Shown here piece after piece: positions 14,658 to 64,000 of a stretch of 64,000 nt of DNA. Source of the DNA: Eledone cirrhosa (Eukaryota). Numbering within the stretch: the first letter of the stretch is position 1; each line of letters opens with the position of its first letter. A program made the position numbers and the translations under genes. The stretch is from contig OZ024752.1 of assembly GCA_964016885.1 (NCBI GenBank), positions 22,940,001 through 23,004,000 of the forward strand, in the 5' to 3' direction. The notes under the pieces were generated by a model that did not search any database, had not been told where the DNA came from, and was given only the letters and a program-made list of their open reading frames with translations.

Positions 14658-14862
14658 TAGGAACGAATAGGACCCCGACGGCTGAGCTCAAGTCGTTTCG
14701 ACGGATAATTCTGGACGGCTAATTGAGTCCAGAATTAGCCGTCGAAACGGCTTGAGCTCAGCCGTCGGGGTCCTACTCGTTCCTATTACCCACTCTACTA
14801 CCCTAAGTATTGAGTACTTGGTGCGTTATGGTCCACCTGGTTCCTTACCACATTTCCTTCGT
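14658..14862 (+). mobile_element. Fold-back mini-element (PLE terminus-derived, 3' half of HHR)
   Basis: Hairpin 14658-14785 plus 77-nt tail, (TA)n on both sides. Contains GTC-GAAA-CGGCT..AGCCG-TC-GGGG. Related copies at 27383/28549, 38554, 43651, 44598. Confidence 0.75.
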
Positions 14863-15207
14863 TATATATATATATATATATATATATATATATATATACA
14901 TATACACATACATATATACACACAACCTCATACACACACATATACACGTGTGTGTGATTGTAGACACCTGACCATTTTTGCAGACCTCACCAATGAATAG
15001 CCATTGTTTGCTTGGAATAAATAAGGAGTGCCTCTCAGTGTGAGTTTGTCTATAGGTACTTAGCTTGAATTTTTTTCTGCCTTTGTATGACTTTTTTAAA
15101 GAATCCCCTTCTTTAAACCCATTAACCAATAACCTCCGCCCATCCCAATCACCACCCTCTCCTACCACCAGAAAATGTATAAATACCACCATATTACATT
15201 GACAGTC

Positions 15208-15258
15208 GGCTTCCTGGTGATTTCTCCTGAATGAAAACGTTCTAGTCCTGTAGAAGCC
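15208..15258 (+). ncRNA. Degenerate type I hammerhead ribozyme in PLE terminus 14960-15340
   Basis: GGCTTC CTGGTGA ..GAAA.. GTA GAAGCC; homologous to the intact motif at 42113. Confidence 0.55.
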
Positions 15259-15686
15259 ATTTCTATATTAAATATTTATACTCTGGTATGTATTGAGTGC
15301 CTTACTTACTGTGGTTACCCCCAATTGAACTCGGGATAATCACACACACACACACACACACACACACACACACACACACACACACACACACACACACACA
15401 TATATATAGAAATGGTTACACAACAGTTAGTTCACCATGCCGAGAACAATTGTTTCACCTTAACGGATCCTTACGAGCTGAAGATATTACGTCCCATATA
15501 TTACCTTCCAGTGTTCTACCACTATATATATATATATATATATATATATAATGTAGAGGTTATATTTAATTTATTGGGATACAACAAGGTAAATATTTTT
15601 ATAACTGATATAAAGCACTCAACAAATTATTGGAGTAAATATACAATATATTAACAAATGGAAACTATATTTATAAAACCATATTT

Positions 15687-15750
15687 ATTTCATTATACAT
15701 ATTTCAAGGGCCACCAGAGCAAACTATGGTGCGCTTTCATCAGATAAAAT
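15687..15750 (-). ncRNA. Type I hammerhead ribozyme in PLE terminus 15552-15830
   Basis: ATTTTAT CTGATGA AAG..CTT GAAA TATGTA TA ATGAAAT. Confidence 0.75.
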
Positions 15751-15857
15751 ATAATATAGGTTAGTTTTATAAATAAATATTGACATACCCTTAAAAAATG
15801 CAACCATTCTGGTTGGAATCTCCTGGATTATATATAAATCTCCTGTGTATATATAAA

Positions 15858-59774: not shown

Positions 59775-59838
59775 TATTTTATCTGATGAAAGCGCACCAT
59801 AATTTGCCTTGGTTGCCCTTGAAATATATAATAAAATA
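59775..59838 (+). ncRNA. Type I hammerhead in PLE terminus 59740-59972
   Basis: TATTTTAT CTGATGA AAG..CTT GAAA TATA TA ATAAAATA; same family as 15687, 19400 and 44032. Confidence 0.78.
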
Positions 59839-60181
59839 AATATGGTTTTACAAATATAGTTTCCATTTATTAATATATTGTATATTTACTCCACTAACTT
59901 GTTGAATGGTTTATATCAGTTATAAAAAATTTTAAGCTTGTCGAATCCCAACAAATTAAATATAACCTCTGCATATATATATATATATTTCGTTTCTGAA
60001 TTTGTTTAGCAAGATTCTTTATCTGAAAACGTGTGTTGAAACCGATATTGTTATACTTTGGGAGGGTCATGTTGCCAATAAGAAACACACGCACCAGTTG
60101 TTTCACTTCAATTTATTATAATAAATTTATAAATTTCCGGTTGGTTGGTTGGTTCCACAACCAGATGGTTGTTTATATATT

Positions 60182-60224
60182 GTCAAAGTTCTTTCGTCAC
60201 ATATTCTGTGACCTCTTCAGTGAC
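60182..60224 (-). ncRNA. Type I hammerhead ribozyme
   Basis: Mirror of 62733-62775. Confidence 0.82.
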
Positions 60225-62732
60225 AGGGGATTCTTTTCTTTGTTTTTGTGCCTCTCCTTTGTTCTGTCCTACGCCATCTTGTTTCTGTGTGTGTGTTGTG
60301 TGCTCAGTCTGCGCATGCGCCACATCCGGGTGTCTGTGTGTGTTTATATTCGTTTATTTATTTGTTTATTTACATGTTACAGGTTGGTTGTTTGTTCTAT
60401 GTGCGTGTGTGTTTTCATTTTGTCCGTAATTGTAAGTTGTGATGTTGCTGTTCCACTCATGTTTTCTATTTAATTTTGGTTGTAATTCTTTTATGTTTAT
60501 TGCCTCTGTGATTTGTCTAAACATTGCGTCTTTTCTGTGTGTAGATTCTATTTTTATTTCTATGTTCTCTAATTTACCCTTATGTTCTATTTTAGCATGT
60601 TGGTAGAGTACAGATGATTATTTACTATCTTGAAGGTCTCGCCAGTTTTCATTTATCCGTTCCCCTACATTACGAGCTGTCTCACCTATGTACACTATAT
60701 TTTTGTCTCTACAATGTCCTTCAGTACATCTTATGCTATATACTACATTTCTAGTTTAACAGTTAATATGGGGGCTTAATTTACAGGTTATGCATTTCTT
60801 ATTTATACAGGGGGGGGGGGGGTCTTGCTAATAAGTGTTTTTATGGAGGTACCTGGTCTTTCTACTATCTTAAGGGGTCTTCTAATTGTTCTTTAAGTTT
60901 AAGTTTAAGTCTACTGTCCCACCATACCATGAATAAGTTAGCTATGTCGCCTGCAATGCTAACACCAATGGCTGCTCCCTCCTCTTGGGCATATGTTTTT
61001 CCATTAAATTTGAACATATGTTCCTTAAGGGTTAATTTTATGCTGGCCCCCACCGCATGTGCAATCATTTTCTTTAGTTCATCGTGGTTTTCGGGGCTCC
61101 GTATGGTTCTGGTCCACCCGTTCCATCTATCTGTGTGGGTTTTCTTGGCCATTGAGATAATGGTAGGTGGTCTGCCTCTTGCTGCTCTTGTAGGGCACAG
61201 GTTGCTAAGGTCATATGTGTCTAGATAATTATTACTATAGGTAAGTTTAAGTAGGAGTCCCAGCTCACTGGTATCAATCCCAGGGAACTCAACATTGCTC
61301 TCACTGATCATTTCTACGCATTTCTCCACAGCAAAATTCAGACCACCTACCATTACCTCAATGGCCAAGAAAACCCACACAGATAGATGGAACGGGTGGA
61401 CTAGAGCCATACGGACCCCCGAAAACCACGATAAACTAAAGAAAATGATTGCACATGCGGTGGGGGCCAGCATAAAATTAACCCTTAAGGAACATATGTT
61501 CAAATTTAATGGAAAAACATATGCCCAAGAGGAGGGAGCAGCCATTGGTGTTAGCATTGCAGGCGACATAGCTAACTTATTCATGGTATGGTGGGACAGT
61601 AGACTTAAACTTAAACTTAAAGAACAATTAGAAGACCCCTTAACCCTGATAATGTACTCCCGCTACGTTGATGATATAAACATCGTAGTTAAAACACCCC
61701 CACTAGAGAACAGTCAGGAATTAGAGAAAAACACAATGGAAAGCATCCAGCAAATAGCTAACTCCATCCACCAGAGTATTAGAGTTACTATAGACTACTC
61801 AAGTAAACACCCCAACCATCGATTACCTGTACTAGACACAGAGCTCTGGTTAGATACCATTAATAACAAAAAACAAATCCTCCATTCCCATTATGCCAAA
61901 CCCATGACTTCCAAATATCTGATCCACCGAAACTCAGCTGTTTCGGACCATACCAAAATCAACATACTGATTGCGGATTTGGTACGGGTGATGAGAAACG
62001 TGTCCCGCATGTGCAACCCCGAAGAACTAGAGAGACACATACAACACTTCATCCACCGTATGCAGTTCTCTAGTTACAATCAGAGAGATAAAATCAGAGT
62101 GTATAGAGGAGCCAGAACCAAATGGGAAAAAAATGGTAAATAATGACACAAATGGGTCCTGCCCCTTGTATAGGAGCAAATTTTGGAATAGAATAGAAAG
62201 AACTAGGAATCAGGCTAATAGAATAAACTCATGGTATGATAGCAATACATACCAGAGTGTAATGTTCATCGATACAACCCCTAGAGGTGAATTAGCTTAC
62301 AAATTTAGAAGGGCCCTAGATAAACATAAACTCAATATTAAGATAGTAGAAAGACCAGGTACCTCCATAAAAACACTTATTAGCAAGACATACCCTTTAC
62401 AAAGACCCTCCTGTATAGATAAGAAATGTATAACCTGTAAATTAAGCCCCCATATTAACTGTAAAACTAGAAATGTAGTATATAGCATAAGATGTACTGA
62501 AGGACAATGTAGAGACAAAATTATAGTGTACATAGGTGAGACAGTTCGTAGTGTAGGGGAACGGATAAATGAACACTGGCGAGACCTTCAAGATAGTAAA
62601 TAAACGAATATAAACACACAGAGACACCCGGATGTGGCGCATGCGCAGACTGAGCACAGAACACACACACAAAAACAAGATGGCGTAGGACAGAACAAAG
62701 GAGAGGCACAAAAACAAAGAAAAGAATCCCCA

Positions 62733-62775
62733 GTCACTGAAGAGGTCACAGAATATGTGACGAAAGAACTTTGAC
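62733..62775 (+). ncRNA. Type I hammerhead ribozyme
   Basis: GTCA CTGAAGA G GTCAC AGAATAT GTGAC GAAA GAAC TT TGAC. Confidence 0.84.
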
Positions 62776-64000
62776 AATATATAAACAACCATCTGGTTGT
62801 GGAACCAACCAACCGGAAATTTATAAATTCTTAAACTTATAAATTTATTATAATAAATTTAAGTGAAAGCAACTGGTGTGTGTGTTTCTTATTGGCAACA
62901 TGACCCTCCCAAAGTATAACAATATCGGTTTCAACACACGTTTTCAGATAAAGAATCTTGCTAAACAAATTCAGAAACGAAATATCGTAAGCCTTAGCCA
63001 GGCTAACAAGATACTGAAAACCACCATGTTCTGTTGTCTACGAAAAACAATAACATCTCGACAAATACATTTTATAAAAGAATGTGCCTCGTCCCGAGTT
63101 TACACCATCAACACCGATGTAAGAAGATTACAGCTCACCAAAAAGCAAGCAGATAGGCTAAAACGAACACTAATTCTAAACATAAAAAAAAGATCTATAG
63201 AGAATTAAGTCATCAAGAAAAACATAAGCGTAACCTAATACAAGAAATAACTAAGATCACCACACCAAGAGAAAAACTAATATTTATAAACCTTATACGT
63301 CCTGAAGAACAGTACATTGTTCAAGAATGTGATAAGCACTTTAACAAGAAACTAAAGTGGCTTAAACAGATAAAACTAAATCAAGATACTTTAGAGAATA
63401 CCAATAGATACCCCGACAAAATTGACGGTATAAATATGGCCGACATCTCATTAACAGATGAGTTCAACAACAACAACACAAATATATACGGTAACACTAC
63501 GGTCGACTCTGATGAATTATCTGTATTACAGCTACCACCTAAGTATGCGACATTCAATAAGGTAAATATGATTAGATGTTTGTCAGAAATAGAAAAATCA
63601 TTTACAAAATTACGTTGGAGCCTCAAAAACAAAAACAAAAACAAAAGTAACAACATACGCACACACATATACAACACACATCCCAACAACAACAGACACA
63701 CAGACACAAACAACAATAACAATAACATACACATCAACAATAATAACATACTCAGAAACAACAATAACAACACACGCAACAATAATAACATACACGGAGA
63801 CAACAACAACAACACACATCAACAACAACACACATCAACAACAACAACAACAACAACAACAACAACAACACACACCCATTCAATGCCTCTCACCACCACC
63901 ACAATCTTAACAAACACACAGACACAGAAAACAAGTAATGGCACTAGCACAGAAATAAGGGAAGGTAATAGGATTGAAAGGAGAAGGGAGACTATGGACA

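Follow-up and report, generated by a model that had tools for sequence, protein, structure and literature searches.

Canonical endonuclease-positive (EN+) Penelope-like elements (PLEs) have pseudo-long terminal repeats (pLTRs) and are integrated as head-to-head arms, one of them an inverted, 5'-truncated copy, with a 'tail' at one end; the arms meet in a palindrome or a short overlap, the repeats contain hammerheads, and partial tandems occur (PMC3846280, PMC8557442). How the tail and the inverted repeats are formed was stated as open (PMC8557442) and has been answered in part (PMC11167929): in vitro, the reverse transcriptase (RT) of PAc, the Poseidon of Anolis, starts at two internal sites that bound the tail, both target strands are cut and extended, the RNA template is uncleaved and a dimer is predicted. 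In the twin priming of L1, two 3' overhangs prime on one RNA and inverted pieces come to lie inside the target duplication (PMC2837659). Here we compare with these systems the PLE insertions in a 64,000-nucleotide stretch of the Eledone cirrhosa genome (assembly GCA_964016885.1, contig OZ024752.1, positions 22,940,001 to 23,004,000 of the forward strand; hereafter the window), in which (TA)n and PLEs are abundant. Their two arms end at two different defined sites, one on each side, and a small bulged hairpin appears to mark each site. We propose, at a probability of about 0.7, that they arise by programmed twin priming on one RNA, whereby the enzyme, probably paired, would bind the two hairpins and prime once at each.

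All 10 insertions named in an earlier sequence-only reading of the window consist of a minus-strand arm followed by a plus-strand arm, with the sense 3' ends facing outward into (TA)n, as that reading had claimed. We denote the short end S and the long end L, express each end as the position of the element's final base counted from hammerhead cleavage, and label the families A (14658, 27382, 38554, 43651), B (16735, 43822, 15550, 59700), C (39511), D (44152), E (32527), F (21968) and G (36690-38490). The ends were S+17/L+96 at 14658, S+17/L+97 at 38554, S+17 at 43651 and L+97 at 27382 (all family A); S+57 at 16735 and S+43 at 43822 (B); S+10/L+89 at 39511 (C); S+43/L+132 at 44152 (D); S+34/L+111 at 32527 (E); and S+36/L+92 at 21968 (F). 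Thus S lies 10-57 nt past cleavage and L ~55-100 nt beyond S, a distance that equals the tail length; the earlier reading gave ~13-55 nt and a further ~60-90 nt. At 16735 the arms share a 15-nt overlap (~14 nt had been claimed), and 2.7 kb is present in the short arm and not in the long one, while the tail is present in the long arm and not in the short one. Either arm can be the longer (22 vs 26). At 27382 the short arm is just ~21 nt and the interior is family A 3' untranslated region (UTR); at 43651 an internal deletion has removed the hairpin of the long arm; compact family A copies retain the 3' half of the ribozyme only. One boundary did not hold: position 62985, taken as the right limit of the group, falls on a repeat inside a Neptune-like element that in fact extends from 59989 to 67505. 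The features are as follows, hairpin 1 being the copy next to S, hairpin 2 that next to L, and ORF standing for open reading frame.

14660..14862: compact insertion of family A with the short arm (-) on the left and the long arm (+) on the right; hairpin 1 of the long-arm tail at 14792..14815 (+)
16733..19511: family B insertion; the left arm (-) is long and consists of the tail alone, and the right side (+) holds a broken Hydra-type ORF with the short arm
19400..19462 (+): type I hammerhead motif of the family B insertion, cleavage after 19454
21967..22184: compact insertion of family F whose short arm is on the left and long arm on the right; a degenerate hairpin 1 spans 22133-22152
27384..28686: family A insertion in which the left, short arm is 21 nt and the long arm has 1.3 kb of 3'UTR; 75-83% identity to an intact unit
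28499..28594 (+): complete family A hammerhead motif (by eye) with UUGANAA (U3-A8) core, cleavage after 28589
28518..28553 (+): predicted family A promoter, TATA-like box at 28518 and initiator-like TTAGTCC at 28547, where compact arms stop
28615..28638 (+): family A hairpin 1
32527..36648: family E insertion; the left arm (-) is long and holds a broken Hydra-type ORF, the right arm (+) is short, and hairpin 1 spans 32575-32595
37861..37878 (-): hairpin 2 of family G, lying 3-9 nt 3' of where long arms end and set 100 nt from hairpin 1
37951..37978 (-): hairpin 1 of family G, within a read-through 5' repeat that precedes the ORF
38427..38491 (+): inverted long arm of family G, consisting of only part of the tail
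38556..38740: compact insertion of family A, with hairpin 1 at 38669-38692
39511..42167: family C insertion with its long arm on the left, its short arm on the right and an interior rich in microsatellites; hairpin 1 at 39554-39572
42083..42163 (+): family C predicted promoter (TATA box at 42083, initiator-like CCAGATT at 42111) and hammerhead motif cleaved after 42157
43653..43786: family A subfamily insertion, internally deleted long arm left, short arm right
43823..44127: family B insertion, long arm left, short arm with hammerhead motif right; hairpin 1 at 43883-43903
44153..44579: family D insertion in the form of a near-perfect palindrome; the left arm is long and the right arm short, and hairpin 1 spans 44210-44234
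59989..64000: Neptune-like tandem/inverted element, continuing to 67505 past the window; both outer ends long

The pairing of one S with one L end extends across the 3.0-Gb assembly that contains the window, in which a single family A 20-mer has 59,005 exact matches. Compact family A loci, defined by a gap of 68-98 nt and exact 16-nt anchors, were S+L in 3565 cases, S+S in 40 and L+L in 71, which is 97% S+L (3565/3676) as against the ~50% expected of independent ends. For family C, 828 of 3047 compact loci were S+L under our first definition of S, which missed most loci because the short end lies mostly at ~+21; on inspection of the first 30 non-matching loci and 25 of the 828, one short arm was found in 55/55, with an L end opposite in 54/55 and an internally deleted long arm in 1/55. 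All four tandem arrays of 11-21 kb that could be seen in full have one L and one S outer end. As a separate observation, the family C tail of one locus scored L (L183) changes into a family A short end, possibly by a cross-family template switch.

The same picture emerged from DNA that had not been selected for such loci (864 kb, window included). Since clustering of all TA-adjacent ends fused families, ends were assigned by reference-based mapping, and TA-flanked ends were then bimodal in each family (e.g. A +20/+98, D +46/+132). From 106 arms, 68 fell into 34 pairs from seven families, 31 of them S+L, one L+L and two with an odd end; one of these pairs may be accidental, and the 21-nt arm at 27382 is too short for counting. 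When 60 loci were picked by their L end, the partner was found by pattern in 31 and was S in every one; by eye, the other 29 comprised 7 S+L, 13 one-arm inserts and 9 that stayed unresolved, with no L+L. Raw restriction-site-associated DNA sequencing (RAD-seq) reads of two other samples contained TA junctions at L (8198 and 8918) and at S (3176 and 2772); these were mapped on a natural repeat and give support at the level of the family rather than the locus. Contigs of two further sequencing runs likewise contained both S and L ends. The pairing thus exceeds chance, and the earlier proposal, a defined end on each side and a head-to-head join between the arms, holds across the genome.

What the unrelated tails have in common is a hairpin of the form RCTC, 3-bp stem and loop, 2-nt bulge, GAGY, followed by RCT. 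Its upper stem, which was not a search criterion, pairs in 51 of 63 cells in 21 tails (two mis-anchored rows being kept) as against 36 in shuffled rows, and 0 of 10000 shuffles reached this value; as the rows are related sequences, such shuffle counts are not probabilities. MAFFT misaligned hairpins with variable loops, and pairing was counted from anchors instead. The main S ends lie ~2-8 nt 5' of the hairpin in families A, B, C, D, E, F and G, and in families discovered by the hairpin alone S arms end 1-14 nt before it. A second hairpin stands just 3' of the L site wherever read-through exists (four families). With one hairpin just 3' of each end, hairpin spacing (78 nt in A, 100 in G, 91 in a B subfamily and 70-83 in one further family) matches tail length, as in A (~77-80 nt) and G (100 nt). 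The ribozyme was rejected as the landmark, its distance from S varying from 10 to 57 nt. The landmark is instead the hairpin a few bases 3' of each end.

The hairpin pair is also found in distant homologues. Among 77 metagenome loci, 45 had sequence upstream of the ORF start, with two hairpins in 23, one in 9 and none in 13, at a spacing of 55-83 nt; the opposite strand of the same 45 had no doubled hairpin. Here the upper stem pairs in 122/150 cells as against 79 in shuffled rows (maximum 97), and only if the 2-nt bulge is allowed for, which amounts to covariation. Under a strict pattern the counts were two in 14, one in 15 and none in 16, with 8 of 309 control windows matched. Of 11 recurring TA junctions at these loci, 6 sit 6-13 nt 5' of a hairpin and 5 look like internal AT-rich matches. 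Rfam returned no match for 10 distant loci; at the thresholds used, the hairpin is thus not among its families. In File S7 of PMC8557442 we recognised it by eye in 3/6 novel consensus sequences: it is present in the coral and sea-cucumber Hydra consensus, twice in Hydra-1_Ajap, and as a variant in the copepod one, and is not clear in two others.

The target sites point to a staggered cut. Where the TA tract was interrupted, the interruption was duplicated at 19 of 31 informative sites, with a mode of 14 bp (11 sites as scored, plus four by eye); in an unselected set it was duplicated in 7/95, as against a shuffled mean of 1.6 and a maximum of 5. Such duplication implies 3' overhangs on both sides, the geometry with which it goes in target-primed reverse transcription (PMC2837659) and which a pair of priming events would require, and duplicated interruptions argue that the TA tracts existed before insertion; the query for empty sites gave 2 trivial matches among 108. 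The TA match between element and target is 3 nt at both ends in A; it reaches 6 nt in G and in C is often a single base. An internal TA/AT motif, at which the earlier reading had the short arm stop, was rejected as the determinant of the short end on account of family C, where S lies mostly at ~+21 with a 1-base TA match, though a 5-nt match is available at +11-15. The S site is set more by position than by a TA motif.

Both arms of an insertion are, by their shared variants, from one source lineage. A diagnostic base was common to the two arms in 54/54 family C loci kept (55 found), 24 being T/T and 30 A/A. Family A arms differ from each other as much as random pairs do (108 vs 110), which shows that no later homogenisation of the arms takes place. 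Units of one array differ from each other by 0-0.4% (up to 0.65% in array a5) and those of different arrays by 0.4-1.9%, and the inverted arm was in each case nearest to its own array. In one array 14 kb is attached to the short end and ~0.3 kb to the long end. Between the tandem array of L222-L223 and its inverted short arm (G000:C1 array, positions 19170-22693) we observed a 55-nt stretch of the family A ORF repeated head-to-tail ~64 times, which suggests reiterative copying by RT. Tail-only inserts between TA tracts also exist; in family A, 219 of them start exactly at S as against 47 at a control TAT that is better conserved than the S site (80 vs 47 of 119 arms), a ~8-fold excess.

The inner limits of the arms were also recurrent. 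In a set selected for compactness, family C arms stop at -44 to -46 in 57/110 and never past -47, and long arms not chosen for compactness begin at -45 to -36 in 36/81 (A) and 14/40 (C). These stops coincide with initiator-like motifs 29-30 nt after TATA-like boxes, and are predicted to be the transcription start. Added bases at such ends were C in 15 of 23 cases in family C (44/55 loci scored) and not so in A (7 cases), and central head-to-head junctions vary among copies. RAD-seq depth near the predicted start was not used, a nearby cut site biasing it. We also noted short tandem units of ~200-257 nt with both hairpins at L189, L190 and L192, retrozyme-like in appearance; those of L189 and L190 rejoin at the predicted start site.

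By sequence, then, there are S+L pairing, a hairpin near each end, 14-bp duplications, a single lineage for both arms and variable head-to-head junctions; the priming itself we infer. In the proposed sequence of events, the endonuclease would nick both (TA)n strands 14 nt apart and so supply two 3' overhangs, one of which would dock 5' of hairpin 2 (long end) and the other 5' of hairpin 1 (short end), held by no more than 1-6 nt of UA pairing. Both cDNAs would grow toward the 5' end of the RNA, with displacement of the leading strand by the trailing one, and their free ends would be joined through 0-3 nt of microhomology or a few added bases. The two hairpins coexist nowhere but immediately downstream of the predicted start, so that most events would run out of template after 60-140 nt and give compact palindromes. 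Hairpin 2 is missing from copies that end at L or S, and both hairpins are present only in leaders or tandem junctions, which again fits compact inserts; for long and tandem inserts a circular or multimeric RNA, or a jump between templates, would be required. Programmed twin priming would account for the strict pairing, the tail length, the fact that either arm can carry the body, and the compact inserts. In its widest form, toward which we lean only slightly, twin priming would be obligate and RNA-programmed in Hydra-clade PLEs generally: two 5'-leader hairpins would each seat one subunit of an RT-endonuclease dimer, both strands of the 14-nt staggered cut would be extended from one RNA, and hairpin spacing would set tail length across animal phyla.

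Several results weigh against this proposal. Inspection of family A exceptions found true S+S in ~5/10 and true L+L in ~2/10, the remainder being point variants, S ends two bases further, or read-through. In the unselected DNA 38 of 106 arms had no partner within 6.5 kb, and one-arm inserts made up ~13/60 of the long ends. The Neptune-like element of the window (59989-67505) is L+L, an exception to the pairing, and no hairpin of this kind was seen in its tail; its family has two ends 60 nt apart and 7 S+L pairs without this hairpin, which is therefore not the sole route to two ends. Among the distant loci, 13/45 had no hairpin match. Long arms of family A stop at S in ~2% (219 vs 8936 read-through arms). 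The shared variants fit one RNA molecule or two transcripts of one locus alike, and the transcription start and the enzyme dimer are predictions.

In one alternative, the overhangs would prime on two RNAs from one source locus, an asymmetric complex forcing the use of different sites. The idea has been published for L1 (PMC2837659); it explains full arm overlap without strand displacement, and arms of the same lineage fit if both RNAs come from one locus. However, it gives no simple reason why 97% should be S+L when the two hairpins are on offer in each RNA, or why stops of long arms precisely at S should be in ~8-fold excess, and we consider it unlikely. We rate slightly lower the possibility that a DNA intermediate is cut by the endonuclease beside both hairpin sequences and the cut ends are attached to the target, a route that PMC8557442 suggests for the tail. 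Hairpins could indeed form in single-stranded DNA, and the D. virilis endonuclease required the tail for DNA recognition (cited in PMC11167929), but RT starts at both tail boundaries in vitro (PMC11167929), junctions vary from copy to copy, stop at the predicted RNA 5' end and carry C-rich added bases (15/23), and tail-only inserts lie between TA tracts. Fold-back or self-priming, with one cDNA made and the second arm copied from it or from antisense RNA (PMC3846280), would yield palindromic junctions, arms of one lineage and, through single priming, strict asymmetry. Yet it predicts nested arms, whereas at 16735 the 2.7 kb is only in the short arm and the tail only in the long one, an array carries 14 kb on its short end and ~0.3 kb on its long end, and either arm can extend further 5'; we think it improbable. 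Finally, although palindromes beside microsatellites assemble poorly and read support is family-level rather than locus-specific, an assembly artefact, or one non-autonomous fixed-end element copied as a unit, is scarcely credible given thousands of TA junctions at both sites in raw reads of two other samples, central junctions that differ among copies, target duplications, and a pattern repeated in at least seven unrelated families.

The intact family A ORF is a single frame of 719 amino acids with YRDD and a C-terminal (V)IY..YIG region (RT and GIY-YIG-type endonuclease), in which we find by eye RWR, DKT, CNCPDRSIC (CxCx5C), CNLC (CxxC) and CKH (CxH). Within the window, RWR and DKT occur in the frame at 36641-37828 and DKT in that at 35496-36068, the CxCx5C/CxxC/CxH pattern can be seen by eye at 29355-30101 and 34039-34527, and ORF fragments of families B, E and G show Hydra-type motifs. 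The motif set described for the Hydra clade is RW(R/K), DKT in place of DKG, a CxCx5C linker, and CxxC and CxH in the endonuclease, with no CCHH (PMC8557442). The clade's other marks, a hammerhead in the repeat and insertion into (TA)n, were likewise found; the family A unit of 3.53-3.55 kb exceeds 'generally <3 kb', a soft feature in that paper. By motifs, families A, B, E and G fall with the Hydra-clade PLEs; C, D and F would be placed there by the shared hairpin. The family A ORF had 2027 homologues at E<=1e-30 (8000 scored), the best 120 being mostly ~40% identical. Pfam gave no match for the Hydra-type ORF fragments of the window, and among the best 150 of 178 Rfam matches to the window there was no hammerhead, only microRNA-type noise. 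The UUGANAA variant of the hammerhead core has been described, with circular templates proposed (PMC4209133).

The present families thus resemble the canonical PLE unit in their head-to-head arms, one-ended tail, short junction, hammerheads and partial tandems. They differ in tail length (30-40 there, 55-100 nt here) and in that the tail, optional or often at one end there, is near-obligate in two-arm inserts here; the parts of PMC3846280 and PMC8557442 drawn on describe neither twin hairpins nor a 14-bp duplication. With the Hydra clade they share protein motifs, hammerhead, (TA)n target and, in half of the six consensus sequences, the hairpin; end structure and hairpins are not analysed in the corresponding parts of PMC8557442. 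PAc is alike in initiating at both tail boundaries and extending both cut strands, and the genomic ends seen here are consistent with RT starts of the PAc type; PAc, however, has one AC-rich stem-loop and no target homology (PMC11167929), whereas the present families have two hairpin copies and a 1-6 nt TA match. As in L1 twin priming, a target duplication encloses the two inverted fragments. In L1, however, twin priming occurs only now and then, beginning at poly(A), continuing at a second site that varies and leaving an internal deletion (PMC2837659); here both sites are fixed and internal, and the arms usually overlap. The sequence-only reading knew of no description of the short-end/long-end rule that was as systematic. 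The asymmetry itself was already in print as the PLE 'tail' (PMC3846280, PMC8557442), but near-obligate pairing, paired hairpins, the 14-bp duplication, the common source lineage of the two arms and the stop of compact copies at a predicted transcription start were not found in the literature searched, which did not extend to subscription papers and Repbase notes; Fig. S2 of PMC11167929 could bear on pairing. The strictness of the asymmetry and the twin-hairpin code therefore appear new.

Other features of the window may be noted. Unpaired PLE arms lie at 15095-15340 (C, ending in (CA)n), 15551-15790 (B), 44600-44715 (A) and 59735-59974 (B), and 5'-truncated PLEs at 22240-23930 and 28745-31130 abut (TA)n directly, no inverted arm being seen. 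The Neptune-like element contains an asparagine-rich insert and nested inversions. Symmetric inverted repeats with equal ends, unlike PLE arms, occur at 50217-51386 (558 nt, 99%) and 19666-20196 (198 nt, 93%). An open 1056-amino-acid frame of a long interspersed nuclear element (46926-50096) has apurinic-type endonuclease and RT domains and a TA tract at its end, and a transposase frame at 26026-27366, presumably mariner-like, is flanked by terminal inverted repeats. Near 16670, 32505 and 43645, GC-rich hairpins followed by CTAG (by eye) adjoin TA tracts and resemble Helitron 3' ends.

PLEs are the closest retroelement kin of telomerase, and it is the origin of their tail and inverted repeats that is at stake here. 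The hairpin pair predicts both ends to within a few bases and, together with the 14-nt stagger and intact young ORFs, offers handles that can be mutated in vitro. If the proposal is true, it would provide a boundary rule for annotating Hydra-clade elements and explain tens of thousands of small palindromes; in its widest form, a single mechanism would lie behind the PLE tail, the inverted pLTR and the excess of tiny palindromic inserts.

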